Shown here piece by piece: positions 36,993 through 56,638 of a DNA stretch of 64,000 nucleotides. The notes under the pieces were generated by a model, which made no database searches, was not told where the DNA came from, and saw nothing but the letters and a program-made list of their open reading frames with translations. Position numbers and translations under genes: made by a program. The stretch is from an uncultured Gammaproteobacteria bacterium (GTDB lineage: Bacteria; Pseudomonadota; Gammaproteobacteria; Steroidobacterales; Steroidobacteraceae). Positions within the stretch are counted from its first letter, which is position 1. Each line of letters starts with the position of its first letter. The stretch covers positions 42,779 through 106,778 of the forward strand of contig CAWIDH010000031.1 of NCBI GenBank assembly GCA_963834855.1, given 5' to 3'.

Positions 36993-38153
36993 ATGCAGAT
37001 CGAAAGGTTTGAAATGGAGCGCACCCAGTGCCTCTATGAAAACGTGGTCGAGCTCAATCTCTCGGAGAGCGGCGTGCTGCCGCTGCGAGCCGACGAGCTG
37101 GTCGAAACGGCGGACGACCGAGAACGGTTTCTAGCCAACTCGCTGTGGTACTGCGAATCGGACGGCTCCCACGTTCTTCGCGAGCGCATCGCCCGGTTCT
37201 ACCCGGACTGCGAGGCCGAGAACGTCACGATCACCAACGGGGGCGCCGAGGCGAACTATGTGACTCTCTGGGCGCTCCTCGGCCGTGAGAATCGGCTCGC
37301 CTGCATGCTGCCGAACTACCTGCAGGGGTGGGGCCTGGGCCGGGCCTACGCGAGTGCAGCCGACGCGTTTCACCTGACGGTGCGTGAGGAGCGCGGCATC
37401 CGCCGGTGGGCGCTCGACCTCGATGCGCTCGATCGCGCAGTGACGCCGCAGACGAAAGTCGTGCTCGTCACGAACCCGAACAACCCGACGGGCGCCGTCC
37501 TGAACGAAGCGGAGATGGACGCGGTCGTCGCCGCCGCACGGCGGGTCGGCGCCTGGCTCGTGGCGGATGAGATCTACCGGGGCGCGGAGGTCGACACCGA
37601 TACGACGACGCCGACGTTCTGGGGCCGCTACGAGCGCGTCATCATCACATCGGGCCTGTCGAAGGCTTTCGGACTGCCGGGCCTGCGGATCGGCTGGATC
37701 GTCGCTCCGCCGGAGTTCATCGAGCAGGCATGGATCCGGCACGATTACCTGACGCTGACGCCGGGTCTGCTCAACGACCGGCTCGCCGCGATCGCGATGG
37801 AGCCGGCGCGCCGGGAGACGATCCTGGCGCGGACGCGAGGCCTCATCCGGAAAAACCTGCCGGCGGTCGAGGACTGGATAGGCGCGCGCCGCGATCTGTT
37901 CGACTACGTGCGGCCGGTCGCCGGCGCCATCGCTTATCTCCAGTACTCGTTCGAGATGGATTCCGTTGCGCTCTTCGACGAGCTGCGCCGCGAGCATTCG
38001 GTGCTGGTGACGCCGGCCGGGCACTTCGGCGCTGCGAACGGCCTGCGCTTCGGTTTTGGCTACGACGTGCAGAAAACGATGGCCGGGCTGGCCAGGCTGG
38101 ATGAGCTGATTGCGAAGCGAGGGCTGCGCGACCGTCGCCGGCGCGAGGCCTGA
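36993..38153 (+). CDS. class I/II PLP aminotransferase (arm A)
   Basis: 386 aa. NPNNPTGAV and the PLP-Lys context SGLSKAFGLPGLRIGW. Confidence 0.88.
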   Translation: MQIERFEMERTQCLYENVVELNLSESGVLPLRADELVETADDRERFLANSLWYCESDGSHVLRERIARFYPDCEAENVTITNGGAEANYVTLWALLGRENRLACMLPNYLQGWGLGRAYASAADAFHLTVREERGIRRWALDLDALDRAVTPQTKVVLVTNPNNPTGAVLNEAEMDAVVAAARRVGAWLVADEIYRGAEVDTDTTTPTFWGRYERVIITSGLSKAFGLPGLRIGWIVAPPEFIEQAWIRHDYLTLTPGLLNDRLAAIAMEPARRETILARTRGLIRKNLPAVEDWIGARRDLFDYVRPVAGAIAYLQYSFEMDSVALFDELRREHSVLVTPAGHFGAANGLRFGFGYDVQKTMAGLARLDELIAKRGLRDRRRREA

Positions 38154-38341
38154 TGGTTGCGTACGGGCAGCAGGCAACACCGCGTCCCCTGGGGACTCTG
38201 CTACGCAAATGGTCGACATATTCGACATATTCATCAGCTACGCCAGGGGCGAGCTACCGCCCGAGAATGTGCCACAGATCCCGACAACTGGAACCGACTT
38301 GCAGCAATCTCAGCAATTACAGATCTAGACCAGGTGGTCAT

Positions 38342-40702
38342 TTGGGTAGGTTCCGGGGAGGGAACATTCGTAGGCGTCTCCTGCTGTCCACCGGCCTTCT
38401 CTTGGCCGGGCTCGTGCTGGCGGGCTGCGCATCGCAGGAAACACCCGAGCCCTCCGCGTCGGCGCCCGACAGTGAACCTGCAGGCACGACCCCAAGTGAC
38501 TCGCCATCGCCCGCCGCTCCAGCCCCTGCTGCCCCCGCAGCCGGCACCATCGCGATTTCTCTTCCGAATTCGGGTACGTGCACACGACTAACATCCGAAT
38601 TGCCGCAAAGAATGTGGGAGACCGCCGCCACATTCGATCCTGAAACCGGTGAACTAGTACACCACGGTGGGCACGTCAAATACGAACAAAGCAGCTACAC
38701 CTATCTTTATCATCCTGATAACGGAACCATCAGACGCGCGAAGCCACGACGGACACCGCCGCGAGCGTGCTTACAGGATGGTGCGTATGCTGAATCGCGC
38801 AGAGTTTCGGTCTTTGCGCACGGACTATCAGGCCATGGCTCCATGCCACCCGGTGAATTCAAAAATGGAATTTACACTTCCCTAAAAATCGCCGACGAAA
38901 CCGGACCCTGGCTTTACGACAGTGCCAAGGACAATTTCGAATATGCCCGTACCGTCGGTAATCGCTTTACCTCTTTCTATCATGCGCCGATGGCCTACGA
39001 TGCAAGTAGCGATGTTGTGTATTCACTCGGTGAAACTGAACTCTTCATTTATTCGGTGCAATTGAATAGGGTCTTTCGTCGGGCTTTACCGATCGAATTG
39101 CACCGCCGTCGCAACTATGGCGCGGCCGTTGACCCGATTCATCGCAAGCTGGTGATCTTCGGCGGGGTATCGCCGACACAATGGCAATACATCAGGAATG
39201 ATCGCGGATTACCCGACAGCGAATTTCAGAATCACGTCATGAAAGACACCTGGATGTATCGTCTTGAAGACGACACCTGGGAAAAACTACCGCAAACCGT
39301 CCAACCGCCCCGCGGGTACCCTGGTTCTGACTTCATCAAATACATGATGGTGTATGAACCACGTAACGGGAATATCCTCTTGCGGGTTACGCCCATTGAA
39401 GACGTCGTTTACGACCGTAGCCAATGGCCTCGCGCCGAGACCTGGGCCTTCAATGCCTATTCTCAACAGTGGAAAAAGCTGACGCTCAACGGCGAACCAC
39501 GCTTCCCAGGCTTGACGACTTATGATTCCAGGAATCATCGCCTGGTGATCATGGGCGGCGGCGACGATGTGGCGAAACAGAATAACGAGGGTGTACCGGC
39601 AAACTTGCGGCCCGCTACAAGCCGCGAACTCTTTGTTTGCGATTTGCCCACTCAGCCGGATGCTCTCCCGACGACCCATCCAAAGACAATAGATCTCTAT
39701 ACGCGCAAGACCACAATCACTGATCCAAAGACTGGCATTAAGAGAACTGAGTATTCAAATCAACTGGAATGGTCAGCACAAGCCGGTCAGAGCTACACGA
39801 TTTATCGTGCCGAAGCCAATCCGCTGCCGGGAACCTTTGAGAAGATTGGGGCGGTAACTGCCAATACTTACATCGATCGCACTGCGCTCAATACCAAGGT
39901 TTATGCATATCGAGTGTCGCCCACTCAGCCTGTCGTAGAAAAACGAGTGTACTCAAACGTGGCTTTCGATCAGCCCAGCCGACCGGCTGGTCTAATGGCT
40001 TCAGTTGAAGGCGCGAACCTCGTCGAACTGCGCTGGGACAAAGCGACCGGCCCTGACTTTGCTGGTTACAATGTTTACCGTGCCCGCGGAAACGACGTGC
40101 GTATCGAAGGCGCCGGCGAGAGAATAAATTCCAGCTTGATCAACAGTCCCACCTACATTGATGCGACTGTTGATTTATCTGATTCGGTCGCTCGCTTTTA
40201 TTGGGTAACCACCGTCAATCAGGCCGGCAAAGAGAGTGGTCCAAGCCCTTACGCGATGACATTTCCGGATGCGCCCCTGGCGGCCAATATCGACCGACAC
40301 GAGACGCTGCCGGCACCAACCAACCAGATCAAGATCTGGTGGGAATGGCCTGAGGACATGAAGGTCAAGGGATTCAATGTTTACTTTGTTGATAATCACA
40401 TGAACACGCACGGTAAACCCGCCGAAGTGGTGAATGCGTGGTATGCCTCATGGGCCAAAGCCAACTCGGCACCGATCGTGAAACTGAGTACGAGGACCGC
40501 CGCACCGGGACACCTCAGTTACGAATACACCTTCACCATTCCCGCTGACAGCACCGCTCCACATTATTACTTCTTCGTTCGTGCGGTGAACCTATTGGGA
40601 CAAGAGGGACAGAAGACCGACATTCTTTCGAGAACATCAGATGCGTTCGGTCCGCACATCAGCGACCAATGGGGACCTGGCACACAGCGGGCTCAGTTTT
40701 GA
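38342..40702 (+). CDS. low-GC lipoprotein with a Kelch-like beta-propeller region and three FN3-like modules
   Basis: Open frame 38153..40702. The only sensible start before the signal peptide is TTG at 38342 (MGRFRGGNIRRRLLLSTGLLLAGLVLAGC, lipobox LAGC). A Pro/Ala/Ser linker follows. Propeller-like blocks include KLVIFGG and RLVIMGGGD. FN3-like blocks include YTIYRAE...YAYRVSP, LRWDKATGPDFAGYNVYRA...YWVTTVNQAGKESGPS, and IWWEWP...FNVYFV...FFVRAVNLLGQEG. Confidence 0.7.
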   Translation: MGRFRGGNIRRRLLLSTGLLLAGLVLAGCASQETPEPSASAPDSEPAGTTPSDSPSPAAPAPAAPAAGTIAISLPNSGTCTRLTSELPQRMWETAATFDPETGELVHHGGHVKYEQSSYTYLYHPDNGTIRRAKPRRTPPRACLQDGAYAESRRVSVFAHGLSGHGSMPPGEFKNGIYTSLKIADETGPWLYDSAKDNFEYARTVGNRFTSFYHAPMAYDASSDVVYSLGETELFIYSVQLNRVFRRALPIELHRRRNYGAAVDPIHRKLVIFGGVSPTQWQYIRNDRGLPDSEFQNHVMKDTWMYRLEDDTWEKLPQTVQPPRGYPGSDFIKYMMVYEPRNGNILLRVTPIEDVVYDRSQWPRAETWAFNAYSQQWKKLTLNGEPRFPGLTTYDSRNHRLVIMGGGDDVAKQNNEGVPANLRPATSRELFVCDLPTQPDALPTTHPKTIDLYTRKTTITDPKTGIKRTEYSNQLEWSAQAGQSYTIYRAEANPLPGTFEKIGAVTANTYIDRTALNTKVYAYRVSPTQPVVEKRVYSNVAFDQPSRPAGLMASVEGANLVELRWDKATGPDFAGYNVYRARGNDVRIEGAGERINSSLINSPTYIDATVDLSDSVARFYWVTTVNQAGKESGPSPYAMTFPDAPLAANIDRHETLPAPTNQIKIWWEWPEDMKVKGFNVYFVDNHMNTHGKPAEVVNAWYASWAKANSAPIVKLSTRTAAPGHLSYEYTFTIPADSTAPHYYFFVRAVNLLGQEGQKTDILSRTSDAFGPHISDQWGPGTQRAQF

Positions 40703-40749: not shown

Positions 40750-42747
40750 TCAGCCGCGACGGAGCAGCTCGCGATACCGCGAGTCGTCCGCGAGGCTCGA
40801 CATGTTCCAATCGTGGCGCGCCCACCACGCGTGACGCCAACCGCGGGCGATGGCCTCGTCGAGCCCTTGCAGAGCGAGATCGCTACGTCCCAGCACCGCG
40901 TGAGCGCTCACCGCCCAGTACGAGAGACTCATGTTCACGATCCCTTGAGACCGGACATCCTCGAGTTGCGCGAGCAGCTGCTCCAGGCCGTGCCGCCCGC
41001 TTTCCTCGCCGGCAACGACTCGCAAGTGAGCATGGTTGACGATATGCGGCAACCGCCAGACCCAGTTGTCGTTGATGGCATCGTCGATGGCGAGGCGGGT
41101 GTCAGGCGCCTGCAGGTCGTAAAGCGCCCGAGCCGCTTCCAGGTTGCCGAGTGCCAGATGGGCCTGCGCGCGCTGTGAGGGTGAGTAGCTGCGGTCGGTC
41201 TGGCCGTCCGCGATGCGCGCCAGCTCGGAACGGTCGTCGCGCACGATGCGCAACGCGACCGCGAGGTCCGAATCGTAGGCATTGTCGGGGGAGCTGCGAC
41301 ACGCCGACTCGATCAAGGCAGCGGCTGCCTCATCCTCCCCGGCCTGCAGCAGCACGAGGCCTTTGCGGGCGAGATAGAATGCGCGCGTCGGAGCGCGCTC
41401 GATGGCCTGGTCGATCCAGCGCAGCGCATCCCCAAGCGCGCCGCGCGTCGAATTGAGCTTCGCCATGCCGGAGTACGGCACGGCGAACCCGGGGTCGATC
41501 TCGATCGCCGCCGCGAACCGGGCCGCCGCCTCGGTCTCATCGCCGAAGCGCAGTACATCGAAACCCGCGTTCGTATTGGCGATCGGCGACAGGGGATCGA
41601 GCCGGAGCGCCTCGCGATTGCGCGCAGCCGCCTCGCGGTAGCGACCTTGCGCCGTCAGCACCAGGCCGAGCCACACGTGCGCCATCGTGTAGCCCGGGTT
41701 GAGCGCGAGCGCGCGCTCGAGGGCGGCTTCCGCCGCGACGAGATCGTCCTGGTTGTGGTGGATCAGCCCAAGCGACGCGTGCGCCTCGGCAAGGTCCGGC
41801 GCCAGTTCCAGCGCACGGCGGGCAGCGGGCAGCGCGTGCGTGATTGCGCGGGTCGCCGGCATGTTGCCGTAATAGCCCGCGCTCAGGAGCGTGTATGCGT
41901 CGGCGAGGCCCGAATACGCGAGGGCGTAACCGGAGTCGCGTTCGATGGCCTGCTCGAAGTAGGCCACCGCGCGTTCCAGCGATGCCTCCGTGCGCTTGTG
42001 GAAATGATGGCGGCCGAGCAGGTAGAGGTTGTACGCGTCCACGCTCTGCGTGGCTGGAGGCGATGGCGCACGCTCCTCGCCGGTCCTGCGCGGGCCGATG
42101 GCTGCAATGACGGCCGATGCCACTTCGCTCTGCAACCGGAAAATGTCATCCAGGCGTCGCTCGAAGGTCTCTGACCAGATCTGGTAGCCATCAGCGGCGC
42201 TCACGAGCTGGACATCGATGCGCACGGTGTCTGCCTGTTTGCGGACACCACCTTCGAGCACAGTCGCGACACTCAGTCGACGTCCGATCTCCCGCACGTC
42301 CTCGTGCCGGCCCTTGAACGCGAACGACGACGTGCGCGCCGCCACGCGCAGTCCCGGCACGCGCGCCAGTTGGTTGCGGATTTCCTCCGACAGGCCGTCC
42401 GAGAAGTACTCGTTCTCCACGTCCTGGCTCAGGTTCGCGAACGGCAGCACGGCGATCGAACTCTCGGGCGCGGCCGGCGGTGGATCCGCCGGCTCAGGCC
42501 GATCTGGCGTGCGCTCGATGCCGGAGGGAGTGATGTCGAACACCCACGCAAGCACCAGCGCAACCGGCAGCCCGACGGCCAATCCGGCGACGACGAAGCG
42601 CATGTACTGTGAGGCGTCGAACGCGTCGAGCAGGAGATCGACCGCCTGCGCCAGTATCCATGCACCCGCGATGTAGAAGACCGCGACTCGCACGACCCGG
42701 CGGCGCAGCAGTTCCTTCCAGAATCGTTTCGCATCCGGGTGCGCCAT
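40750..42747 (-). CDS. membrane-anchored TolB_N-like / TPR-repeat protein
   Basis: 665 aa. The N-terminal TM region is RVAVFYIAGAWILAQAVDLLL. SIAVLPFANLSQDVENEYFSDGLSEEI is the TolB-N/CsgG-like module common to this family. Multiple TPR-like helices follow. Confidence 0.75.
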   Translation of the reverse strand: MAHPDAKRFWKELLRRRVVRVAVFYIAGAWILAQAVDLLLDAFDASQYMRFVVAGLAVGLPVALVLAWVFDITPSGIERTPDRPEPADPPPAAPESSIAVLPFANLSQDVENEYFSDGLSEEIRNQLARVPGLRVAARTSSFAFKGRHEDVREIGRRLSVATVLEGGVRKQADTVRIDVQLVSAADGYQIWSETFERRLDDIFRLQSEVASAVIAAIGPRRTGEERAPSPPATQSVDAYNLYLLGRHHFHKRTEASLERAVAYFEQAIERDSGYALAYSGLADAYTLLSAGYYGNMPATRAITHALPAARRALELAPDLAEAHASLGLIHHNQDDLVAAEAALERALALNPGYTMAHVWLGLVLTAQGRYREAAARNREALRLDPLSPIANTNAGFDVLRFGDETEAAARFAAAIEIDPGFAVPYSGMAKLNSTRGALGDALRWIDQAIERAPTRAFYLARKGLVLLQAGEDEAAAALIESACRSSPDNAYDSDLAVALRIVRDDRSELARIADGQTDRSYSPSQRAQAHLALGNLEAARALYDLQAPDTRLAIDDAINDNWVWRLPHIVNHAHLRVVAGEESGRHGLEQLLAQLEDVRSQGIVNMSLSYWAVSAHAVLGRSDLALQGLDEAIARGWRHAWWARHDWNMSSLADDSRYRELLRRG

Positions 42748-42909
42748 TCCGGCTATTGTCCGCGAGTCGCGCGCAAGCCGCGAGGGCGCCCTCGGTCACG
42801 CAGATCAGCACACCGACCTTCAATTCGACATCGACAGGCTGGGGGAATCGGTGTCACACTGACCAATCTCCAGGGAAGGATCCAGAGGCCATCCTTGGGG
42901 GGTTGGAAC

Positions 42910-45878
42910 GTGCAGCAAGCACGAATCGTGCTGTCCGGATTCTGCGTTCTCGCCGGAATCACCTGCCAGCTCTCCGCGCGAGCTGACGACCAGGTACTCG
43001 AAGAAATCGTCGTCACCGGCTCGCGCATCCCTCGTCGCGACTTCGAGTCGGCGAGCCCGATCGTGTCGGTGCCCCAGGCGGCTTTCGAGCGCACCGGGTC
43101 CGCCACCGTCGAGACGACGCTGAATGCACTGCCGCAGTTCGTCCCGTCGCTCACCAGCACATCCAACATAGGCCCTGGCTCAGTCGCCGGCGGGGAGGCG
43201 AATGTCGACCTGCGCGGCCTCGGCACAGCACGCACGCTGGTCCTGGTGGACGGAATGCGGTTGATTCCGGGCAACGGCGACGGGGTCCCGGATCTCAACA
43301 TCATCCCCCCCGCCCTGATCGAGAGCGTCGAGATCATCACGGGCGGCGCGTCGGCGGTGTATGGATCGGATGCGATCAGCGGTGTCGTCAACCTCAAGCT
43401 GAAAAAAGAGTTCGAAGGCATCGAGTTCTCGGGGCGCTGGGGCCAGACCGACCGCGATGACGGCGAGCAATACGATCTTGCGTTGACCGCGGGAACGTCC
43501 TTTGCCGAGAGCCGCGGCCGGGTCATCGGGTTCGTCGGCCATTCGAGTCGCGAGCAGATCGATCGCGTCGCGCGGGACTTCGCCGTGGTCGATCTCGTCT
43601 ACAAGGGGTGGATCGACGCGCCTGAAGGTGAAATTGGCCCGGGCAACAATTACTTTGCCTTCGCAAAATATCTTTATTGAAGAGGGTCGCGTCGGTGGGG
43701 TCGACGCCGACGAAACAGTCTTCGAGAGCCTCTTCGAGGAGTCCTACGGCTACACCGTGTGCAGCTCGCCGACTGAAAGCGACGAATGCGTGCCCTACCA
43801 GGACGCTTTCGGCTTCAACACGGACGGGACACTGTTCACGACCGGCGACTTTATTCTTGCCGCCGGGCAGCGTGGCGAACTTCAAAGGCGAGATCGATCC
43901 TGCGCTCGAGAACGGCGGGCGGTTTTACGGTTACAACACCGCTCCGAGTTACGCGCTGCAGCTGCCGCTCGAACGTACCTCACTCTTCCTGGTGGGGAGT
44001 TTCGACCTCAACGAAGTCATCAACGTCTATGCGCAGGGGCTTTACACGGACTACACGGCGAATACTCAGGTGTCGCCTGTGCCGTTGCAGGACGTGACGA
44101 TGCCGGCGAGCAACCCTTTCATCCCACCCGACCTGAAGCGGCTGCTCGATGCGCGCCCGGATCCGGCGGCACCCGTGGACTTCCAGAAACGGATGACGGA
44201 AATCGGACCGCGCATCCAGGAGAACCAGTCCGACACGTACCAGGTCACCGTCGGCGTGCGTGGCACGGTTCTCGGCGACTGGAGCTTCGATGCCTACGCG
44301 CAGCACGGCGAGAGCGACCAGACGATGAAGCAGTCCGGCGCCGTGCGCCGCTCGAAGGTCGAGGAGCTGACCTACGCCCCGGACGGTGGGCAATCGCTCT
44401 GCGCCGGCGGCTTCAATCCGTTCGGTATTGGCGCGCTGTCCGCCGAATGCGCCGCTTATGTCTCGGTCAACTCCGTGTCCACGGAAAGTATCCGGCAGAC
44501 CGTCGCCGAGGCGTCGGTAGGCGGAAGACTGCTGACGCTGCCGGCCGGAGACTTGGGAACCGCGTTCGGCGTGATGTATCGCAACGATAGCTACCAGTTC
44601 CGCGCCGACGACCTTCTCCGCACGTTCCTGCCCGACGGCCGTGCCGACAACGCAGGCGGCAACGCGTCCGACAATATCGACGGCGGGGACCACAACGTCG
44701 ACCTCTACGCCGAGGCGCTGGTGCCGGTTCTCGCGGACAGGCCGGGCGTGCGCTCGCTCGAGGCCGGCTTCGGTTATCGCCGTTCTGACTATGCGATGGA
44801 TCGGCGTGCCGATACCTGGAAGGCCGAGCTCATCTACCAGCCGGTCGAGAGACTGCTGACTGCGAGGCTCGTACCAGCGTGCCACCCGGGTGCCGAGCAT
44901 CGACGAGCTCTATAGCCCACAGGTGCCGGTCTTGGTCGACATCGGGCAGCTGGATCCCTGCAGTTTCAATAGTGATGAGCGCGAAGGCCCGGATCGCGCC
45001 AGCGTCGAGGCGCTTTGCCTCGCACAGGGCCTCCCGGCCGCGCTGCTGCCGGACTTCGCGACTCGCCATCTTTGTGGAGGGAGTGTCTGGGGGCAATCCG
45101 GATCTCGAGCCCGAGGATGCGACGACCCAAACGCTGGGCGTCGTGTTCGGCTCGCCAGTCGATTCCCGGCTCTGGTCGGACCTGCAGGTGTCGCTGGACT
45201 GGTACCAGATCAAAATCGAGGACGTGATCACTTTCGTGTCCGCCGAGGAGTTCATCTTCAACTGCTACGACCCCGCATTCAATCCCGAGTACGCCGCCAG
45301 TAACCGCTGGTGCTCGAATTTCGGGCGCGATGCCGATTCAGGGGAGATCGTCGACACGATCGAGATCAACCAGAACCTTGCCGTGCTGGAGACGTCCGGG
45401 ATCGACCTGCAGCTCAACTGGAACATCGACGTCGGGCGCGGTGAACTGGGGGTCGCGTGGTACGTCGGATGGGTCGATTCGTTCGAGCGGCAATCGGATC
45501 CGGACGTCGCGGGCGAAGAGCAGGTCGGCACGATCGGCGGCTTCGCCGGCGCGTATGCCGAATGGAAGTGGAACTTCGAATTGAGCTACGCCGTCGGCGG
45601 CCTCGGCCTGAACGGCGTCTGGCGCTACGTCGACTCGATGCACGACATAAATTTCCCGGAGTACGAGACTATCTCAATACGATTGCTTCGATCTCTACGC
45701 GAGCTACACGGTCAAGGACGGTCCGCTGGGCGGCATCATCCTGAGCGCCGGTATCGAGAACCTGACGGACGAGGACCCGCCGATCTTTCCGACCTGGTCG
45801 AATGCGAATACGGACGCCTCGCAGTACGACGTCCTCGGTCGCCGCTTCTTCGTCAGCGTCCGCTATTCCACATTCTGA
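42910..45878 (+). pseudogene. TonB-dependent receptor (core copy 1), about 5 frame breaks (near 43665, 43855, 44865, 45060, 45680)
   Basis: GTG at 42910 (signal peptide ...CQLSARA, LEEIVVTGSR). Pieces lie in the frames of ORFs 42739.., 43502.., 43677.., 44890.. and 44879.., plus a final unlisted frame ending DVLGRRFFVSVRYSTF-stop at 45878. Confidence 0.85.
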
Positions 45879-48800
45879 AGCTGCGCATCAGCGCGCACTC
45901 CGATGTAGGCGGCTGCGACCTCCGGCATCATCCCCTCGCGCGCGAGCAGACGGGCGAGCGTGGCGCGGCGATAGCGCCAGTCTTCCCATGCGTCGTCTGG
46001 CCAGTCTTCAATCTGGGCGCGCTGGGCAGCGGCGGCGTAGGAAGCGAAGGCCTTGAGCAGGAGTGCGTTCTTCTTCTGCGGCGAGCTCTCGGTAACGGCG
46101 GCCGCCTCGTCGCGCTCGCCGAATCGTGCGAGCGCATTGGGCTCGCCGATATCGGCGCCCTTTCGATACCAGGACCAGGCCTTCGATGGGTCCGGCTGAC
46201 GTGCAACAGGCGTCGCCGCGCCCGCGCCCGGAACTCCCTGCTCGTAGAGCTGGCCCAGCTCGAATGCAGCGATCGGCACGCCGTCCTCGCCAGGCCTTTT
46301 CGTAGAGCGAAACCGCGCGGCCGGGATCGGGCGTTCCGGCGGACGCATCGGCGAGCAGGCCTGCCAGATCGACTTGCGCGGCACGATAACCGCCCGACAC
46401 TGCGCGCTCGAACTCTTGTCGCGCGCCCTTCAGATCGCGCTTCGCGACCAATGCGCGGCCCAATTGATAGGCCAGTCGCGGTGCAGTTCCCGACTCCGCG
46501 ATTTCCTGCGTACAGGCATCGCCGGCAGAGTCAGCGGAGATCTTCCCTTGTGCGACGCCCGACGCCCGACGATCGGGATCGTAGGGCGCTGCAGCCGCGG
46601 AATCGCATTTCGAGGCATCGTCGGGCCAGGCCCTGACCCGCGCATCCCGCGGCAGGCCCAACCGGGACCGCTCCAGCTCCGAGAGCTCGTCGATTTTCGC
46701 AGCCTGTGACCACGCAATCTGTGTGTCCAGGTCCGCGGCAACGTCCGCGTCCCAGATGCGCGCGGTTCCGTCCTGCGAGGCGGTGACGATGCGCCGGCCA
46801 TCGGGGGACCATGCGGCCGACCAGACGACCTCGCCATGGCCGGAGAGGACGGCGAGCTGCACGCCGCTGTCCGCATTCCAGATGCGCACCGTCCGGTCCT
46901 CGCCGGCGGTGACGATGTGCCGCCCATCGGGCGAGAACGCGGCACGTCATAACGGCCTTGCCATGGCCGGAGAGGACGGTGAGTGGCTTGCCCGTGTCCG
47001 CGTCCCAGATGCGCGCGGTCAGGTCGTCGGAGGCAGTGACGATGCGCCGCCCGTCGGGCGAGTACGCGGCGGAGTGGACCCCATCGCGATGGCCGGTGAG
47101 CATGTTGACTTGCCGGGCGGTGTCCGCGTCCCAGATGCGCGCGGTCCAGTCAAAGGAGGCGGTCACGATGCGCCGCCCGTCGGGCGAGAACGTGGCGGTG
47201 CGGACGTTGGCGGCTCCACGAGCCGAGGCGCCCTCGCCATGGCCGGACAGGACGGCGAGCGGCTTGCCCGTGTCCGCGTCCCAGGTGCGCGCGGTAGAGT
47301 CGTTGGAGGCGGTGACGATGCGCCGCCCGTCGGGCGAGAACGCCGCGCTGGCGAAAGTACCGCTACCGCCAGGCACGTCGTGATGGCCGGAGACGACGGC
47401 GAGCGGCGCGCCCGTATCCGCGTCCCAGGTGCGCGCCGTCCAGTCGTTGGAGGCGGTGACGATTCGCCGCCCGTCGGGCGAGTACGCGGCGCTGCGGACT
47501 TGAACGTCATGGCCGGAGATTTCGGCGATCGGCCTCGCCGTGGCCGCATCCCAGGTGCGCGCGGTCCCGTCCATGGAGGCGGTGACGATGCGCCGCCCGT
47601 CGGGCGAGTACGCAGCGGTCTGGACCGAATCGCCATGGCCGGTGAGCATGTCGAGTTGCCCGGCCGCGTCCGCGCCCCAGATGAGCGCGGTGCGGTCAAA
47701 GGAGGCGGTCACGATGCGCCGCCCGTCGGGCGAGAACGCGGCGCTGCGAACGACGACGCTATGGCCGGCGAGGACGGCGAGCTGCGTGCCCGTCTCCGCG
47801 TCCCAGATGCGCGCGGTCTTGTCCTCGCCGGCGGTAACGATGCGCCGCCCGTCGGGCGAGAATGCGGCGCCCAGGACACCACCGCCGAACCCGCCTGGGC
47901 CATGGCCTGAGAAGACGGTGAGCGGCTTGCCCGTATCCGCGTCCCAGGTGCGCGCGGTTCCGTCCATGGAGGCGGTGACGATGCGCCGGCCATCCGGCGA
48001 GAACGCGGGTGACATGACGGACGTCGTCGTGACCGGAGAGTGTGGCGAGCGGCCTGCCCGTAGCCGCGTCCCAGGTACGCGCGGTCCCGTCCTGGGAGGC
48101 GGTGACGATGCGCCGGCCATCCGGCGAGAACGCGGCACCCAGGACGCCCTCGTCGTGGCCGGAGAGGACGGTGAGCTGCTCGCCGCTGGCCGCGTCCCAG
48201 ATGCGCGCGGTCTGGTCGTCGGAGGCGGTGAGGATGCGCCGCCCGTCGGGCGAGAACACCGCGGAGAAGACACGATCGCCGTGGCCGGAAAGCACCGCGA
48301 GCTGCTTAGCTGTGGCCGCCTCCCAGACGCGCGCGGTCTTGTCGGCGGAAGCGGTGACGATGCGCCGCCCGTCGGGCGAGAACTCGGCCCAGATGACGGC
48401 ATCGACATGGCCGGAGAGCACGGCGAGCTGCTTAGCCGTGGCCGCATCCCAGATGCGCGCGGTCTGGTCGTCGGAGGCGGTAACGATGCGCCGCCCGTCG
48501 GGCGAGTACGAGGCGAACGGCACGCCACCGTCATGGCCGGAAAGTACGGCCAGCCTGGTGTCGGCCGCGCGCGCTTCCTGGAACACGTTGATTGCCGAGG
48601 CGGACCGCGCACTCGGGTTCGCGAGGACTTCGACGATGATTGCCTGCGCGCCCGGAACGTCGCCGTCCGCCAGATGCCGGGCCGCCGTGTCGGTGACCAA
48701 CCGCAGCTGGGCCGCCAGCGCCCGTTGCGCCTGGGACTCGGCCTCATGCTGCTTTCGCAAGGCGATCAAACCGGCTCCGGAGGCAAGCAGCGCAAGAACG

Positions 48801-51013
48801 GTCACGACGCCGGCGACCAGAGCCAGCACGCGTACCGAGCGGCTGCGTATGCGCCTGTCATCGGCCTGCGAGCGCTCGATGTAATCAACGAGATGGGCTT
48901 CGGTGTCCGCGCGATGCTCGCGCAGGAGACGCTGTCCGTCGATCAGGTCGAGGTCCGTGAGGAGTCCCGGTTCGTGGCCAAGACGCGCGCGCCAGGCGGC
49001 AAATCTCGCGCGTAGCGTTGCTTTGCGCTTGTCCTTGGTGGCGAAGTCCTCGCCGGAGTCCTTTGACGCGCGCCACAGCGCATACCGCTCCTCGATGCGG
49101 CGGCGGATCTTGAGGGCTTCGGCATTGTCCTGCACGAAATCGCGCGCCCGGGCCCATCGCGTGATGAGCGCTTCGTGGGCCACACGGACGGTCGGGCCGC
49201 CACCCGTTTCAGCATCGCTGACCAGCAGGCGCGCATCGGAATGGAGCAGCGCCTCGACCAGCCTGCGTTGCGCCGTGCCCGGCGGAAACGTCGACAGAGG
49301 CACCCGCCTGGAGATGGCGCGGTCGACGTCGCCGTCGGTGGTGCCCATCTGGACCAACGCGAACAGCACCGAACCGAGCGCCTGGCGATCCTCGGGCGCG
49401 CAGCTCTCCAATACCGCGTCCGCCCGGGTGGCGATCGCGCCTCCCAGCCGGCCGAGCCGCTCGTAGGTCGCAAAGGTCAGGGCGGTGCCCTGGGCCTCGA
49501 GCACATCGCTGCGATAGAGCTGGTCCAGGAGATAGGAGAGCAGCGGCAGTGCCCCGGCTTCGTGGGCGACTTCCTCTGCGATGATCTCGTTGAGCGGCAC
49601 GTCGGTCGTCGGGTGGTGCTCGAAGCCGACCCCCGCCGCGGCCGCGGGACGCCGGATCATCTGGCTCAGCTGCGTCTGTGTGGGTGGCAGGAGCTCGAGT
49701 CGACCGTCGCGCTCGGCCATTCGTACGAGCTCCGGCGTGTCGTCGGCCTGGTGCCAGAAGTCCTTGCGCATCGTGGCAATGACCCAGACGTGACCCGAGC
49801 GCACCAGGCCCGCGACCAGGGCGATGAAGCGTTGCCGCTCCAGAGGCGTCAGCAGTTCGTTCGTGAACAGCTCTTCGAGCTGATCCAGCACGAGTACGAG
49901 TCGCGCGGTCTCGTACTCCAGCATGCGGCCACTCTTGCGCGCGGTGACCGCCAGCTGTCCAAGCACCGCAGCGATCGGATAGGCGGGTTCGGCCGTGGCA
50001 TTGCGCAGGTGCGCGGCAAGACCCGAAACCGATTGGCCCGGCCCGATGAGTTCCGACAGACCTTCGTCCGCGGAAACCTGCATCGTGAGCCTGCGCGCAA
50101 GCGCATCAAAGAGATCCTCGCCCTCTTGCGCATCGCTGGGGCGGAAAATGACGCGCCGCAGGAACGCGACGCCCGGTATGCGTCGCGGCACGAAGAGCTT
50201 CGGAACGATGCCTGCCTTCACCAGCGACGACTTGCCGGAGCCGCTGGCTCCCAGCACGAGCAGGAACGGCGAGCCTGCCGCGGCGCTCGCCACGAGCTGG
50301 ACCATGGCCTTCGTCAGGGCATCGTCCTGGCCGAAGAAGATCGGCGCGTGCTCGAACTCGTAGGATTCCAGTCCGCGAAACGGCGCCTGCGTCCATATCC
50401 GGGTTCCCTGTTCGTGACCGGCCGAGGCCAGGGGTGCAATGCGCTTCTCGATGAGCTTGCGCAGGTGCTTTTCGAATGCCGCTGCAAACTCGGTGCCGTT
50501 TGCAAACTCGGTGTAGGCGCCGAGATAGGTTCCCTGGTTGGCGAAGTGCCGTGACCAGAACCGGTCGAGCTCCTCGAGCTGCTCGATGTCCTTCCGCCGG
50601 TGCTCGGAATCCAGGGTGTTTACGCGGGCGTACTCGCGGCTGCGGTAGACGAGGAGATCCGGCGTTCCGACCTCCCGGGTAGCTTTCAAGGCTTCCTCGT
50701 ACTCCCACTCTGTTCCGGTCACGGGCGCGCGCCCGTCGATTCCGCGGTACTCACGCACCTTCGTGCGCTCCGGCAGAGGCGTGCCCAGCCGCGACCAGAC
50801 GATCAGCACGACGATGTCGAATGCGCTCGGCGGCTCGATCGAGTCCTGGAAATGCCCCGAGGCGACCATTGCCTCGTATTCCCAGAGATAAGGCTCGATC
50901 GTGAAGAAGCGCGCGTAGTCCTGCGCCAGGCGTTCGATGGTGAGTGCCGCGATCTCGCGCGTCGCACTGACATCGCCAGGCGAGGAAAGGAAGATCCTCA
51001 GCCGCTTGATCAC
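45863..51013 (-). pseudogene. DUF4062 (TIR-like) - nSTAND1 P-loop NTPase - TM helix - 14x WD40 - Sel1-repeat protein; about 1,716 codons, three frame breaks (near 47995, 46940, 46292)
   Basis: Collinear pieces are 47759..51013, 46531..48747 (WD part), 46008..46889 and 45863..46384. Motifs: RIFLSSPGDVSATRE / DIVVLIVWSRLGT / TGTEWEYEEA; PFRGLESYEFEHAPIFFGQDDA; Walker A GASGSGKSS (50233..50259); Walker B LVLVLDQLEELF; TM VRVLALVAGVVTVLALLASGAGLIAL; SPDGRRIVTAS x14; Sel1-like AAFELGQLYEQG...AWSWYRKGADIGEPNALARFG. Confidence 0.85.
46745..48560 (-). repeat. tandem 126-nt coding repeats (14 WD40 units) inside the STAND gene
   Basis: The unit SGH-x-V-x-SAAFSPDGRRIVTAS-x-D-x-TARIWDA-x-TG-x-L-x-VL recurs 14 times. 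Three units carry short insertions after SGH. Confidence 0.85.
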
Positions 51014-51056
51014 GGGCGGCGGACACTACGGCATTGGATTGGCACGGTCCAGCGCG

Positions 51057-54008
51057 TCAGAAGCGCAGCGCCAGCGTGACGTAGTAGCGTCGCCCCAGCA
51101 CGTCGAACTGTGACGGGTCCGTGTTCGCATTGCCCACGCCGGAAAGATCGGGGGCTGCTCGTTAGTCAGATTCTCGACCCCGGCGCGGATCGTGAGATTG
51201 TCGAACCAGCCGTCATCGAACGTGTAGCTGCCGTCGACGTCGAAGTAGTCCCTGTGCGGCACGGTCATGTCGGTCGTCTTGAATCCGAATCGGGAGGTGT
51301 CGACCGTCGAGTCGACGTATTGCCAGCTCAGCCCGACGTCGAAATCACGCCACGTGTAGCGCAGGTCCGCGAGCCACTTCCATTCCGGATAGGAGCCGCC
51401 AAAGCCACCGATCGTTCCGGCGAACTGGTCCGCAGGTACGGCGCTCGTCGTCTGGAGCTCGAACCTATCCAGCCAGCCGACGTACCAGCCGACGCCGAGC
51501 GTGCCGGGTCCGACGGGCAGGCTCCAGTCGACCTGGAAGTCGACGCCCGACGTCGTCTGCGTGGCGAGGTTATAGAGCGTGTCAACGGCGCCGACGACCT
51601 CCCCGGTGGCCGAATCGCGGCCGAACAGCGTGCACCAGTAGTTGTCCGCCGCGTAAGCCGGATTGTAGACGGGGTCGAAGCAGTTCAGGACGGCGGTGCC
51701 TGCGTCCACGAATGTGACCACGTCGTCGATCTCGATGCGATACCAGTCGATGGTGAACTGCAGGTCACGCACCCAGGGCGATTCGAACCCGGGGCGCACG
51801 ACGATGCCGGCGGTGACCGTGTCGGCGGTCTCGGGCTCGAGATCCGGGTTGCCGACGACGGTCGTCAGGATATCGGAAGCGGAGTAATCGGGCAGCAGCT
51901 CCACCGGCATCCCCTGCTCGACGCACAGTGCCTCGACCAGCTGCGCGTCGGGACCGTTCCGCTGATCGCTGTCCACGCTGCAGGGCTCGGGTGGGAACAA
52001 AAAGACGAAGCTCGACGTTCCGGGCAGGAACAACTCGAAGATGGAAGGCACGCGCACCGCGCGCTGGTAGGACCCACGCAGGCGTACGGCGGTCATCGGT
52101 TGATACAGCAGCTCCGCCTTCCACGCGTCGACCCCGCCCGCGGATGCGTAGTCTGAATACCGGTATCCGAACACCGATTCGAGCGACTCGACGCCCGGCA
52201 GGTCCGCCAGGAGCGGGATCGCGGCCTCGACGTAGACGTCGGTGTTGTGGTCCTCGCCATCGATGTCGTCGGCGGCCTCGGAGCCGACGATGTCTGGACC
52301 GCCGTCCGGCAGGATCGTCCGCAGGGCTTCGTCCGCACGATACTCGTACTCGTCGCTGCGATACTGCACGCCGATCGCCATCCGCAGATCGCCCGCGGGG
52401 AGCGCGAACGGCGCACCGTGGGCCGAGATCTCGGCAATCACTTGCCGCGACGTCGGCCTCGATGCCGGCGTCGACGGCAATGTAGTCCGCGCATCCGGGC
52501 AGGACCGAGCCGACGCCGAAGGGATTGAAACCCCCGCAGATGGAGACGCCGCCGTCCGGCGCGAACGTCAGTTCCTCGACCCGCGAACGGCTGACATTGC
52601 CGGTCTGGTACTTCCACTGGCTGCTCGCACCGTATTGCGCATAGACGTCGAAGTCCCAGTCGCCCGGCAGGCGGCCGCGCGCCCCGGCCGTCAGCTGGTG
52701 CATGTCGTAGTTGTTCTCGTGCACTCGCGGTCCGCGCTCGGGCAACCGTTTGCCGAAATCAAACGGAGCGTCCGGGTCCTGGCGCGAGTCGAGCAGGCGC
52801 TTGAGGTCCGCCGGGATGAACGGATTGGTGGGTGGCATGACGACAGACTGCAGCGGGACCGGTGCGACCTGGCTGTTGACCGTGTAGTCGGCGTAAATAC
52901 CCTCGGCGTACAACTCGAGGTCGTCGGTCAGGTCGAAGTTCGCGGACGCGTAGGCCGACGTCCGGGTCAGCGGCATCTGCAGGGCGACGAAATTCGCGAA
53001 ATTGTAGTTGTGGAAAAAGGAGCTCGAGGTCAGTGGATCGCCCTGACCGCGGAAGTTTGCGACGCTGTCCGGCTCGACGTTGCCCATCGTGAACACGGTC
53101 CCGTCGGTGTTGAACCCGAAGTCATGATTGCCCTCTTGCGGTACCGTTCCGGCGGGATATCCGTAGGATTCGAACACGCGTCGAATACCTCCGGATCCGC
53201 GTCGATTGTCACCGTCAGAACGCCACGCCTTCCTCGGTGAAACTCGACCCGATGCCCACGTAGGCGTTGCCGGGGCCGGTGATGCCCTCGCCAGGCCCGA
53301 CATAGAACAACGGCGGCCCGCGAAAACTCCCGCGCCGGCTGATTGATCTGGGCACGATCGTAGTAGCCGACATAGCCCATGATCGATCCGCGGCCATCCG
53401 CGAAGCCCGTGCCGGCCGTAAGCGAGATGTCGTATTCCTCGCCGTCGCCGCGATCGGTCTGACCCCAGCGCCCGCCAAGCTCGACGCCGTCGAATTCACG
53501 CCGCAGCCGGAAGTTGACGACGCCCGCGATTGCGTCCGACCCGTAGACGGCCGAGGCCCCGCCGGTGACGACCTCTACGCTCTCGATCAGCGCCGGAGGA
53601 ATGACGTTCAGGTCCGTCTCGCCATTGGCGTTGACCGGCGTCAGCCGCCGGCCGTCGACGAGGACCAGCGTGCGGTTGTCGCCGAGCCCACGAAGGTTGA
53701 GGCCCGCCCTGCCTTCGGAGTAGCTGTTCAGAGTTCCCCGCATCGTTGGATGTGCCGGTGTAGCTCGGCACGAACTGCGGATATCGATTCAGCGTCGTCT
53801 CGGCGGTGCCCGACGACGTACGCTCGAATGCTGCGGCCGGCACCGCCACGATCGGGCTCGCTGCCTCGAAGTTCGGCCGTGCGATGCGCGTGCCGGTCAC
53901 GACGACTTCCTCGAGTGATTGGTCGTCAGCTCTCGCGGAGAACGGGCAGGCGATCACGGCCAGCAGACATGATCCGGACAGCGCGATTCGAACTGGCCCC
54001 ACGTTCAA
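51057..54008 (-). pseudogene. TonB-dependent receptor (core copy 2, paralog of 42910..45878), about 6 frame breaks (near 53745, 53330, 53215, 53175, 52450, 51105)
   Basis: Signal peptide and LEEVVVTGTR are in ORF 53496..54008. Further pieces are 53030..53743, 53215..53499, 51765..53303 and 51026..52480. The true end, DVLGRRYYVTLALRF-stop at 51057, is in another frame. Confidence 0.85.
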
Positions 54009-54665: not shown

Positions 54666-55508
54666 CTAGGACGCACGGGTGGCCGCCGGCCGCACGGCCT
54701 CAACGAAAGCCTCGATCGACTCGTGCGCCATGCGCGCAATCGCGGCTTCGGTCGCGTCGAACGTGATTCGCGCCTTCACAAAGCAACCCCGGCGTGTCGT
54801 GAGCAGGGCCGAGGTCATCTGCGAACCTGGCAGGTCGATGATGGTCATCAGGCAGCGCTGCCTGCCCGCGGGATCTAGAAACCGCGCCTCGTGCTTGACC
54901 CTGGCGCCGGGGCTCGCGTCGATCACCGCCGCGACGACCTCAGCGTACTCGGCAACGACGCGTTGGTCCGCCAGATCCTCCGATGGCAGCGGCTGGCCGT
55001 TGTCGTACACGGAGACTATCGCTTCGATTCGAAGCCCGGCATACGACACGCTGCTTCCCAGTCCCGGCTTCTGCGGCTCGTCGTCCGTGGCATTGAAGAA
55101 GTGCAGCCAGCCCAGTTGGGTGGGCAGCCGCACGCCCGATCGCCGATCGACGAATTCGCGCGGAGCCGGAAGGTCGATCGATGTGCTGTCCGTAGCGAGG
55201 GCATCGAGCGCGAAATAGACGCCCTCCCGAAGGACAACATACTGCTGGTCGACGAGCTGCAAGGTCTCGATGCCCGCGCGGACGAGCTTCTTCTCCGGCG
55301 AAACGATTTCGAGATCGACCAGTCGCCAGCCGATCCTGCGCGCGACCCCCAGGCACCGCAGCACGACCGCCATGACTTCGACAGCGACCGGCAAGGCGGG
55401 CGCGGCTACGACGACCGGCGTGGCCTCGTTGCCGTCCCCGCCGCGTATGGGCAGGTCGACCTGGAAGGCCCGCTTCAGGAAATCACGAAGCGCGAATTCG
55501 TCCGGCAT
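54666..55508 (-). CDS. hypothetical protein, no recognisable domain
   Basis: 280-aa ORF with strong GC3 bias in this frame. The ATG at 55508 overlaps the 3' end of the arm-B aminotransferase by 26 nt. No TM segment or signal peptide seen. Confidence 0.55.
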   Translation of the reverse strand: MPDEFALRDFLKRAFQVDLPIRGGDGNEATPVVVAAPALPVAVEVMAVVLRCLGVARRIGWRLVDLEIVSPEKKLVRAGIETLQLVDQQYVVLREGVYFALDALATDSTSIDLPAPREFVDRRSGVRLPTQLGWLHFFNATDDEPQKPGLGSSVSYAGLRIEAIVSVYDNGQPLPSEDLADQRVVAEYAEVVAAVIDASPGARVKHEARFLDPAGRQRCLMTIIDLPGSQMTSALLTTRRGCFVKARITFDATEAAIARMAHESIEAFVEAVRPAATRAS

Positions 55509-56638
55509 GCGCTCGCCCGATGAAGGCGTCCAGCCTCGCGAGGCCTGCCACCGTCTTGTTCGCGTCGTAGCCGAAGCCCACCCGGATGCCGTTGCTCGCG
55601 CCGAAATGACCGGCGGGGACGAAGAGCACGGAGTGCTCGCGTCGCAACCGGTCGATCAGGTCAACGGAGTCGAAGTCGAACGAGTATTCGAAGTAGGCGA
55701 TCGCGCCGGCGCGCGGCCGCACGTAACTGTAGACGTCCCGGCGCTCATCGAGCCAGTCCTCCACGGCCGGAAGGTTCTGCCGGATGATGCGTCGCGTGCG
55801 CGCGAGGATGGCGTCGCGTCGCGCCGGCTCCATCGCGATGGCCGCGAGACGGTCGTTGAGCAAGCCCGGCGTCAGCGTCAGGTAATCGTGGCGAATCCAG
55901 GTCTGCGCGATGAACTCAGGCGGCGCGACGACCCACCCGATGCGAAGGCCCGGCATTCCGAAGGCCTTCGAGAGACCGGATGTGATGATGACCCGCTCAT
56001 AGCGTCCCCAGAAGGTCGGCGTGATCGCGTCGGCATCGACTTCGGCGCCACGGTAGATCTCGTCGGCGATGATCCAGGCTCCGACGCGCCGTGCAGCGGC
56101 GATGATCGCCGAACATTTCCGCCTCGGTCAGCACCGCACCGGTCGGGTTGTTCGGGTTGGTTACGAGGATTGCCGTGGTCGTTGGCTTCACGGCGCGATC
56201 GAGCGACTCGAGATCGAGTGCCCAGCGCCTCACACCGCCGTCGTCGCGCAGCACGAGACGGAACGCATCAACCGCGCCGGCGTATGCGCCGCCCAGGCCC
56301 CAGGCCTGCAGGTAGTTCGGGAGCATGCACGCCAGCCGTCCCTCGCTGCCGAGCAAGGCCCAGAGCGTCACGTAGTTGGCTTCGGAGCCGCCGTTGGTGA
56401 CCGTGACGTTCTCTGCAGCACAGCCCGGATAGAACTGCGCGATGTGATCCCGGAGCCTTCGCGACCCATCGGATTCCGCATAACAGAGACCTTGCGCGAG
56501 AAAACGCTCGCGCGCCTCGGGTGTTTCGAGGAGTTCTTCCACACGCAAAGGCAATACGCCGCTCTCCGAAAGATTGAGCTCGACCGCGTGCTCGTAGAGG
56601 CACTGCGTGCGCTCCATCTCGAAGGTTTCGATCTGCAT
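55483..56638 (-). pseudogene. class I/II PLP aminotransferase (arm B), one frame break near 56108
   Basis: The N-terminal part is ORF 55997..56638, good up to NPNNPTGAVLTEAEM. The C-terminal part is in the frame of ORF 55483..55956 (AIIAAARRVGAWIIADEIYRG ... SKAFGMPGLRIGW). It is collinear with 36993..38153. Confidence 0.85.

Follow-up and report, generated by a model that had tools for sequence, protein, structure and literature searches.

The window, i.e. the whole stretch of 64,000 nucleotides analysed here, carries on its minus strand one large gene which is split by probable single-base sequencing errors. Four open reading frames (47759..51013, 46531..48747, 46008..46889 and 45863..46384) are collinear pieces of this gene, and the deletion of one base each at about 48019/48020, at 46947 and at about 46287-46289 restores a single open frame from a GTG start at 51013 to a TAG stop at 45863-45865, as was expected from the original prediction that the four pieces join into one protein. 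The repaired gene lines up collinearly with P0010, P0012 and P0020, three intact homologues, and the order of the parts is conserved in intact homologues from short-read assemblies. As listed in Table 1, the product consists of a DUF4062-related head, an nSTAND1 NTPase, a hydrophobic helix, 14 WD40 repeats and a Sel1-like helical tail in this order. Our literature search found no paper on such an architecture, in agreement with the earlier statement that no experimentally characterised system is known with this domain order, membrane insertion and TonB-receptor context.

Table 1. Features of the repaired gene and of its product, with positions in the window
Feature	Position	Strand	Residues	Basis or remark
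Whole gene	45863..51013	minus		1,715 codons plus stop after three single-base removals
Head	50399..51013	minus	1-205	divergent DUF4062-like, TIR-like α/β domain, then two long helices
TGTEWEYEE	50693..50719	minus	99-107	N-terminus of predicted helix C
nSTAND1 STAND NTPase	49058..50383	minus	211-652	PF20703
Walker A, GASGSGKS	50228..50251	minus	G255-S262 (K261)	sequence reading, within nSTAND1 match
Walker B, LVLVLDQLEELF	49865..49900	minus	L372-F383 (D377, E380/E381)	sequence reading, within nSTAND1 match
Predicted single transmembrane helix, VLALVAGVVTVLALLASGAGLIAL	48758..48829	minus	V729-L752	hydrophobicity maximum
Fourteen WD40 repeats	46692..48556	minus	~820-1440	PF00400, 14 stretches
C-terminal tail	45866..46691	minus	1441-1715	all-helical
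Conserved cysteine pair	46512..46607	minus	C1469 (46605-46607), C1500 (46512-46514)	tail alignment
Sel1-like repeats	46118-46472	minus	~1514-1631	family profile and predicted fold
Frame break 1	48019..48020	minus		extra C in GACGTC[C]GTCATG
Frame break 2	46947..46947	minus		extra A in GTTATG[A]CGTGCC
Frame break 3	46287..46289	minus		one extra base in TGGCG[A]GGAC

The profile search of the repaired protein, which had been suggested together with the original prediction, recovered both nSTAND1 and the 14 WD40 stretches. For the predicted nSTAND1 core, Pfam PF20703 is matched with 286.8 bits (cut-off 27.1; E 5.2e-85) over profile positions 1-376 of 379, and the P-loop (Walker A, GxxxxGK[ST]) and the acidic residues of Walker B, the core of which reads LVLVLDQLEE, are intact. 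In fact the motifs quoted by the earlier reader, namely RIFLSSPGDV, VTGTEWEYEEALKA, GASGSGKS and LVLVLDQLEELF, are all present. Among the precomputed domains of close relatives PF20703 and PF13191 are found, with PF05729 listed for one relative only. The profile assigns the module to nSTAND1 and not to the NACHT clade, to which the NTPase of the TEP1/NWD type belongs.

As for the head, a Pfam search of residues 1-218 gave no match at E<=1, and the gathering score of PF13271 was not reached. Among 42 head relatives with pairwise identity <=62%, however, 36 match PF13271 (best E 3.4e-6), which is the sole recurrent family, and through these relatives the full profile (1-82) is placed on residues ~5-103 with 22-23 bits against a cut-off of 24.7. 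By such sequence comparison the head is related to DUF4062 as an outlier and falls short of membership at the Pfam threshold, so that the DUF4062/TIR-like assignment made earlier stands for the relatives, while the head itself lacks a Pfam match. The structural comparison came out in a similarly divided way: the AF2 model (pLDDT 94.9) has five β-α units with the conserved Glu at helix C, but Foldseek against the PDB gave weak flavodoxin-like and TIR matches (TM <=0.48), with the RPS4 TIR domain ranked 18th (E 0.018, TM 0.40/0.48), and the PDB copy searched gave no match to a DUF4062 structure. All 42 heads have F8 and E102, while E104 and E106 are kept in 90% or more of them, and E104 is followed by Y or F (Y105 in the window protein). 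When compared with the motifs in two 2026 preprints, the segment TGTEWEYEE matches the T-E-x-E-Y stretch with the catalytic Glu of DUF4062 described there (10.64898/2026.06.25.731849; 10.64898/2026.05.01.722283). The same preprints describe DUF4062 as a TIR-like NADase with a catalytic Glu, so that the domain is no longer uncharacterised, and the head is probably NAD-cleaving. The head alone finds 3,327 cluster representatives at E<=1e-3, hence the domain pattern is not a matter of chance.

The repeat array is matched by PF00400 (E 4.3e-141) in 14 separate stretches of the repaired protein, with SPDG anchors spaced 42-50 residues from 837 to 1402 and with loop insertions in repeats 5, 9 and 10; judged from the sequence, this is enough for two seven-bladed propellers, the arrangement that had been predicted. 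The repeat number differs among homologues sharing one tail type, the variation within the array is concentrated at loop positions, and dN/dS is 0.45-0.72 in the array against 0.10-0.19 in the head and the NTPase, a mode of evolution which looks sensor-like. For the tail, a direct scan with Sel1 PF08238 gives 22.4 bits and stays under the Pfam cut-off of 30.7, while the family profile A2 compared with the PDB picks out 4bwr (E 5e-19) among the solved Sel1 proteins, which are hit with E-values from 5e-19 to 1e-5. Moreover the AF2 tail model (pLDDT 91.9) has as its twelve best Foldseek matches eleven Sel1-like repeat proteins and AlgK, the closest folds being secreted or periplasmic Sel1-like proteins; the Sel1-like tail seen by the earlier reader is thus upheld by family profile and fold.

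TEP1 and NWD1 are built in the order DUF4062-NACHT-WD40 (10.64898/2026.05.01.722283; 10.64898/2026.06.25.731849). Like TEP1, NWD1, NWD2 and the bacterial TEP1-like proteins, the window protein begins with a TIR-like domain of DUF4062 type, has a STAND NTPase in its centre and carries WD40 propellers towards its C-terminus. It would also share the logic proposed for the TEP1-like proteins in the same two preprints, with sensing by the WD40 part, oligomerisation of the NTPase and activation of the head; however, its NTPase is nSTAND1 and not NACHT, its head is a DUF4062 outlier, a predicted membrane helix lies between NTPase and repeats, its tail is Sel1-like with a Cys pair, and it has no TROVE domain. 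Swarozyc and Evangelion, which are single-gene DUF4062 anti-phage NADases (10.64898/2026.05.01.722283; 10.64898/2026.06.25.731849), have in common with it the DUF4062-type core, the N-terminal aromatic residue (F8 here) and the T-E-x-E-Y acidic motif, and their activity is gated by a variable C-terminal part, as it would be here. They are small (core plus AUX region), soluble and without NTPase, their genes lie on plasmids or in defence islands, and the phage portal activates them, whereas the window protein is 1,715 residues long, contains a STAND switch and lacks a defence-island context. The nSTAND1-centred conflict systems, as they appear in passages of Kaur et al. 2021 (PMC8195603), share the NTPase clade by profile and the layout of an N-terminal effector with C-terminal superstructure-forming repeats; the term DUF4062 is absent from the paper, and in these passages neither a membrane-spanning version nor a WD40 array with a Sel1 tail is mentioned. 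With Toll-like receptors the likeness is by analogy only, in that both would have an ectodomain made of repeats, a single membrane helix and, in the cytoplasm, a TIR-type domain working by induced proximity; the ectodomains are not homologous (WD40/Sel1 versus LRR), the predicted orientation is opposite here (N-terminus inside), and an NTPase switch lies in between. The window protein would share the effector-switch-sensor logic of APAF-1 and of the antiviral STANDs (Avs, bNACHT). In these proteins ligand-triggered oligomerisation activates the N-terminal effector, and they are cytoplasmic and respond to intracellular ligands, namely phage proteins or cytochrome c, while the window protein has no PADLOC match to Avs or NLR.

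Our proposal, which in our judgement has an even chance of being right, is that the locus holds one functional gene, its frame broken by assembly errors, and that its product is a single-pass inner-membrane STAND NTPase with a ligand-switched TIR-like head. By analogy to APAF-1, TEP1/NWD1 and the antiviral STANDs, the binding of a ligand by the outer repeats would release the NTPase, which upon NTP binding would oligomerise and cluster the heads; the clustered TIR-like heads would then become active in NAD+ hydrolysis or in producing an NAD-derived signal, and the outcome might be growth arrest or cell death in a conflict setting, or else a change of state. In cyclase-fused relatives the same switch would pair two cyclase domains.

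It is possible, although we consider it rather unlikely, that the same structure is a housekeeping or environmental signalling receptor with no part in immunity or cell suicide. In that case the outer repeats would respond to a cue from the periplasm or the envelope, the STAND switch would give a non-lethal output, for example a second messenger, and the head would either help oligomerisation as an adaptor or process nucleotides as a regulated enzyme. The composition of the family agrees with such a receptor, as it is very abundant in free-living soil Proteobacteria, its commonest relatives have a membrane helix and a TPR C-terminal half, and variants carry a class III cyclase ahead of the head, which is kept in them and for this reason may be an adaptor instead of the output; yet the head retains the TE-x-E-Y/F acidic motif of the DUF4062 NADases, a caspase-like peptidase accompanies one relative, and nSTAND1 has been defined in counter-invader systems (PMC8195603). 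The genomic surroundings are likewise divided. Ten flanking ORFs have no match in PADLOC, intact homologues often lie among housekeeping genes (spoT, gmk and rph are among the neighbours at locus L006), and over 80 loci from different species there is no shared neighbour gene and no recurrent neighbour family, so that the TonB-receptor context included in the original prediction is not conserved; on the other side, the locus is rearranged among near-identical strains. In the protein itself PADLOC found no validated anti-phage system, the only matches being the defence candidate PDC-S60, which covers head residues 1-188 (E 3.5e-6) and speaks against a purely signalling role, and a weak P-loop match to mad8. 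The lack of a link to defence regions, which had been named beforehand as telling against the conflict-system reading proposed earlier, is found in part, given the flanks without PADLOC matches and the housekeeping neighbourhoods. The immune reading is a reasonable analogy and not a result.

The membrane topology in our proposal starts from the segment V729-L752, where the Kyte-Doolittle mean over 19 residues reaches 2.46, the highest value in the protein; the helical region and the hydrophobic helix expected after the core are both supported. The segment has 24 uncharged residues with charged flanks on either side (6 Arg in the 15 residues on the N-side, 3 Lys/Arg in the 15 on the C-side), and a hydrophobic segment occurs at equal relative position in close and distant family members. 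We infer a single-pass topology in which the head and the NTPase are cytoplasmic and the ~960 residues past the helix, comprising the two propellers and the tail, extracytoplasmic, on account of two invariant cysteines, of the cyclase variants, of a lipoprotein partner and of the secreted or periplasmic proteins to which the tail fold is closest. More specifically, all 108 aligned tails carry C1469 and C1500 (100 of them have exactly two Cys), the sole other Cys in the protein being C538, and a disulfide would stabilise the extracytoplasmic part; the cyclase domain of the variants is always N-terminal, i.e. on the NTPase side; and the gene that follows a short-form relative codes for a lipoprotein having Sel1 repeats plus a caspase-like peptidase. 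To our knowledge, the STAND sensors with WD40 or TPR arrays studied by experiment are all cytoplasmic, and a buried or peripheral helix would leave the whole protein in the cytoplasm as in classical NLR/Avs proteins, but this seems improbable in view of the long uncharged and charge-flanked stretch, its position kept across distant relatives, the invariant Cys pair and the Sel1 lipoprotein accompanying the short form. It is unusual, however, for 728 cytoplasmic residues to precede an exported C-terminal domain of 960 residues.

The frame breaks are most likely long-read errors, as had been suspected, since two of the three are absent from the 97.8%-identical contig L002, other genes of the window are broken as well, and dN/dS of the repaired frame against L002 copy 2 is 0.23 overall. 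Break 1 is missing from L002 and appears with two extra bases in L089, so that 0, +1 or +2 bases stand at one spot in three assemblies; break 2, which after repair reads GKAVMRAAFSPDG, is missing from both. Each related assembly has further 1-nt indels of its own, L002 included, with at least 8 in 2.2 kb of L089, and single-base breaks run throughout the window and occur in related long-read assemblies, hence the suggested tie between the breaks and the repeat array does not hold. Break 3 is common to the window, L002 copy 2 and L089, which come from different samples, and at this site a real lesion is possible. Nevertheless a true pseudogene, or at least a genuine shared frameshift truncating the protein within the Sel1-like tail, is very unlikely: the extra base is identical in the three assemblies and both flanking TonB-dependent receptor genes are in pieces too, but past break 3 the repaired frame shows 8 synonymous against 5 non-synonymous differences, a dN/dS of 0.20, the private indels and the variable break 1 are of the kind just described, the TBDR1 orthologue is one 802-residue ORF in L089, and housekeeping genes are fragmented in sister assemblies. 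After repair break 3 reads YEKAWRDGVPIAAF, while paralogues carry TGGCGGGAC there and intact homologues read AW-x-x-GV-x-IAAF.

The head of the STAND protein defines a unit some 195 residues long, to which 3,327 cluster representatives belong at E<=1e-3. The direct Pfam scan of the window head gave no match, and the head family profile matched no PDB sequence at E<=10. Among 42 diverse heads, 36 match DUF4062 (PF13271) with no second family recurring, and in the members examined all 82 positions of PF13271 align to residues ~5-103 at 22-23 bits against a cut-off of 24.7; the window head probably misses the profile because of its longer insert, PLPERTKVREYRGIDGRAPV. Its AF2 model (pLDDT 94.9) has five β-α units followed by long helices, for which Foldseek returns only weak generic α/β matches in the PDB, a plant TIR domain standing at rank 18. 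Across the heads F8 and E102 are invariant, E104, kept in at least 90% of members, precedes Y/F, and the acidic residues sit at the start of predicted helix C. According to two preprints, DUF4062 is a TIR-like NADase in which an N-terminal aromatic residue goes with a catalytic Glu that sits in a T-E-x-E-Y-like motif, and TEP1, NWD1, NWD2 and bacterial TEP1-like proteins are built as DUF4062-NACHT-WD40 (10.64898/2026.05.01.722283, 10.64898/2026.06.25.731849). Considering its own missing Pfam match, the matches of its relatives, the conserved residues and these preprints, we treat the head as an outlying DUF4062 relative and not as a threshold member, and we infer that it has NADase activity. 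In PADLOC the head matches the defence candidate PDC-S60 (E 3.5e-6), on which a literature search found nothing relevant.

Behind the head, Pfam detects nSTAND1 at E 5e-85, the Walker A motif being GASGSGKS and the Walker B motif LVLVLDQLEE. By profile the protein is a member of nSTAND1, and it is no more than a marginal one of DUF4062; it belongs neither to Avs/bNACHT nor to the NACHT-type TEP1 group. The hydrophobicity peak of the protein is a single helix of 24 uncharged residues between the NTP-dependent half and the repeats, and close as well as distant relatives have a corresponding hydrophobic segment in the same relative position. The repeats comprise 14 WD40 stretches in Pfam, each 42 residues long with loop insertions in repeats 5, 9 and 10, while NCBIfam gave nothing but sub-threshold TolB-like propeller matches. 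Variation in them clusters at S-x-D-x-T and at the positions following GH, and dN/dS rises to 0.45-0.72 in the array against 0.10-0.19 in the head and NTPase. As for the tail, the window sequence by itself has a sub-threshold Sel1 match, a profile of 26 tails matches solved Sel1-like repeat proteins from E 5e-19 downward, and the AF2 model is all-helical (pLDDT 91.9), its best structural matches being Sel1-like repeat proteins (including LceB, LpnE, HcpC and c5321) and AlgK.

The module of head, nSTAND1 and membrane helix occurs with differing partners: most commonly TPR arrays, and otherwise WD40 arrays of varying repeat number followed by the same tail as in the window protein, a short stub, or a class III cyclase placed ahead of the head. 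The tail is seen only after WD40 repeats. P0011, P0025 and P0036, three homologues of the cyclase type, carry a class III adenylate/guanylate cyclase before the head and have a helical, non-WD40 C-terminal half. The short-form relative has 872 residues made of head, nSTAND1, membrane helix and stub. Behind it lies a gene whose product combines a predicted lipoprotein signal (LLGSC) with Sel1 repeats and a Peptidase_C14 domain of caspase-like type; in one contig the stop of the short-form gene overlaps the start of the lipoprotein gene, and the pair is possibly a two-gene version of the system. Carriers are mainly soil Proteobacteria, such as Steroidobacteraceae, Xanthobacteraceae including Bradyrhizobium, Methylocapsa, Methylobacterium and Reyranella, with some Acidobacteriota and Eremiobacterota; cultured ones include Bradyrhizobium sp. 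AT1, Methylocapsa sp. S129 and Methylobacterium haplocladii.

In the best-supported mechanism, an outer WD40/Sel1 sensor would bind a ligand, the cytoplasmic nSTAND1 would oligomerise in an NTP-dependent manner, the TIR-like heads would thus be brought into induced proximity, and NAD+ hydrolysis or signalling would be the output. The raised dN/dS of the repeat array and the variable repeat number fit a sensor tracking changing ligands. The main rival is a signalling receptor without immune function, for which speak the existence of the cyclase variants and the lack of defence context. More tentatively, and rather doubtfully as it stands, the family could be one of outside-in bacterial receptors fusing the logic of Toll-like receptors (repeat ectodomain, one membrane helix, cytoplasmic TIR-type domain) with that of NLRs (STAND switch), in which a periplasmic ligand is sensed and a TIR-like NADase is clustered across the membrane; the extracytoplasmic WD40/Sel1 or TPR repeats would be the sensors, and the ligand would be, e.g., a phage component, a bacteriocin or an envelope fragment. 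In its mode of action the architecture would resemble TEP1/NWD1, APAF-1 and the antiviral STANDs. Its novelty lies in joining a DUF4062-like head to nSTAND1, to a predicted membrane helix that would externalise the repeats, and to a WD40-specific Sel1-like tail bearing a Cys pair. A literature search found no paper describing the head-nSTAND1-helix-WD40-Sel1 architecture, in agreement with the original prediction that no experimentally characterised system is known to have this domain order, membrane insertion and TonB-receptor context, and found nothing relevant on membrane-spanning STANDs; the architecture is abundant.

An N-in/C-out topology is reasonably probable, and several features point to it. 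By hand count, six Arg lie in the 15 residues before the helix of the window protein and three Lys/Arg in the 15 after; in the variant proteins the cyclase is on the N-terminal side of the helix; and the Sel1 module of the short-form relative comes as a predicted lipoprotein. The protein has three Cys, two of which, C1469 and C1500, are kept in all 108 aligned tails, a pattern to be expected of a disulfide made outside the cytoplasm. The proteins structurally nearest to the tail are secreted or periplasmic. A fully cytoplasmic protein is the less likely case. If the predicted topology is true, STAND/NLR-type switches are not limited to surveillance of the cytoplasm, and a very large soil-bacterial family, with more than 3,000 head clusters at 50% identity, has a TIR-like enzyme inside the cell linked to a repeat sensor outside the cytoplasm. 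Activation across the membrane, both of a STAND and of a DUF4062-type NADase, would then become directly testable. Should the topology prove wrong, the gene is nonetheless a new counterpart, built on nSTAND1, of the TEP1/NWD1 architecture.

The gene lies in four overlapping minus-strand ORFs, each carrying on the amino-acid pattern of the preceding one in a different frame, and taking out three bases gives a single frame of 1,715 codons; the coordinates and codon count in the original prediction, which had joined the same four collinear pieces, are correct. The copy in L002, an ENA long-read metagenome contig, is 97.8% identical, and against the window it shows five single-base indels and none longer; it is without the extra bases at breaks 1 and 2 and has three private indels. 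In L089, a third contig, which is syntenic with the window, at least eight more private indels occur within 2.2 kb. At break 1 the window has one extra base, L002 none and L089 two. The extra base of break 3, in TGGCG[A]GGAC, is common to all three contigs; paralogous copies read TGGCGGGAC at this site, and intact homologues from short-read assemblies have an uninterrupted AW-x-x-GV-x-IAAF there. Between window and L002 the repaired frame has an overall dN/dS of 0.23, with 0.10 in the head, 0.15 in the NTPase and 0.20 downstream of break 3 (8 synonymous, 5 non-synonymous changes). Moreover, housekeeping genes such as glnE are also fragmented in sister assemblies, and metabolic genes of the window have partial profile matches only (a GFO/IDH/MocA gene by its C-terminal domain alone, a short-chain dehydrogenase at adh_short positions 2-140 of 195, an aminotransferase at Aminotran_1_2 positions 38-167 of 361), which point to further frame breaks. 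The suggestion that the breaks are sequence errors thus gains from the two sites clean in L002, while their supposed tie to the repeat array falls with the breaks in other genes. The most economical reading is an intact STAND gene in an indel-prone long-read assembly, a pseudogene being less likely and a real lesion at break 3 quite improbable; the breaks are a warning that in places the window holds about one indel per kilobase. Between the assemblies, several indels of one or four bases, break 3 among them, sit at CCWGG motifs (alignment A3 of window 45863-48100 with L089 and L002, columns 232, 254-257, 758 and 1836-1850) and may be methylation-linked nanopore errors; this siting is not counted as evidence because CCTGG recurs in many WD40 repeats as well.

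Positions of the features in the window, in its protein and in the comparison loci
Feature	Location	Position	Strand
STAND ORF, first piece	window	47759..51013	-
STAND ORF, second piece	window	46531..48747	-
STAND ORF, third piece	window	46008..46889	-
STAND ORF, fourth piece	window	45863..46384	-
Break 1, extra base	window	~48019/48020	
Break 2, extra base	window	46947	
Break 3, extra base	window	~46287-46289	
nSTAND1	protein	residues 211-652	
Hydrophobic helix	protein	residues 729-752	
TonB-dependent receptor gene TBDR1	window	42739-45878	+
TBDR1 stop (TGA)	window	45876-45878	+
Overlap of STAND and TBDR1 ends	window	45863-45878	
TonB-dependent receptor gene TBDR2	window	51057-54008	-
Ends of L002 homology	window	45863-45903, 51015-51057	
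Metabolic genes with partial matches	window	29771-33928, 55270-56638	
849-residue ORF	window	38153-40702	+
Cyclase-type homologue P0036	L005	10001-14242	
Short-form relative with lipoprotein gene	L003	10001-14280	
Short-form relative with lipoprotein gene	L004	572-4851	
TIR_2-TPR protein and PemK-like toxin fragment	L007	2170-4269, 4495-4617	

In 80 GTDB loci of different species, nothing recurs but the gene and the ORFs read antisense or out of frame within it, and therefore the TonB-receptor context, which had been named along with the domain order, is dropped as a family feature. PADLOC gave no match on the ten ORFs flanking the window gene. Among the loci inspected the only defence-like neighbourhood is L007: there a TIR_2-TPR protein and a fragment of a PemK-like toxin are encoded some 4 kb away from an intact homologue of the WD40 type.

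The two receptor genes on either side of the STAND gene, in inverted orientation, are paralogues with 66-73% DNA identity; each is broken up into three or more frame pieces, one of them with its Plug domain spread over two frames, and the L089 orthologue of TBDR1 is a single 802-residue ORF. The homology with L002 breaks off at a distance of about 40 nt or less from either end of the STAND gene. Compared with L002 and L089, TBDR2 is inverted: in those contigs it is divergent from the STAND gene and has a second STAND paralogue beyond it. The window has no second copy, and the difference reflects either a genuine rearrangement or a join made in assembly. The STAND and TBDR1 stops overlap by 16 nt, the latter closing the canonical ...RRFFVSVRYSTF, and the last 13 STAND codons, which lie antisense to the 3' end of TBDR1, differ from L002 and are shared with L089. 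Further off, the 849-residue ORF has weak Kelch-like propeller matches and 55.7% G+C against ~67% elsewhere, and is kept beside a TPR gene in L089 and in L001, another comparison locus.
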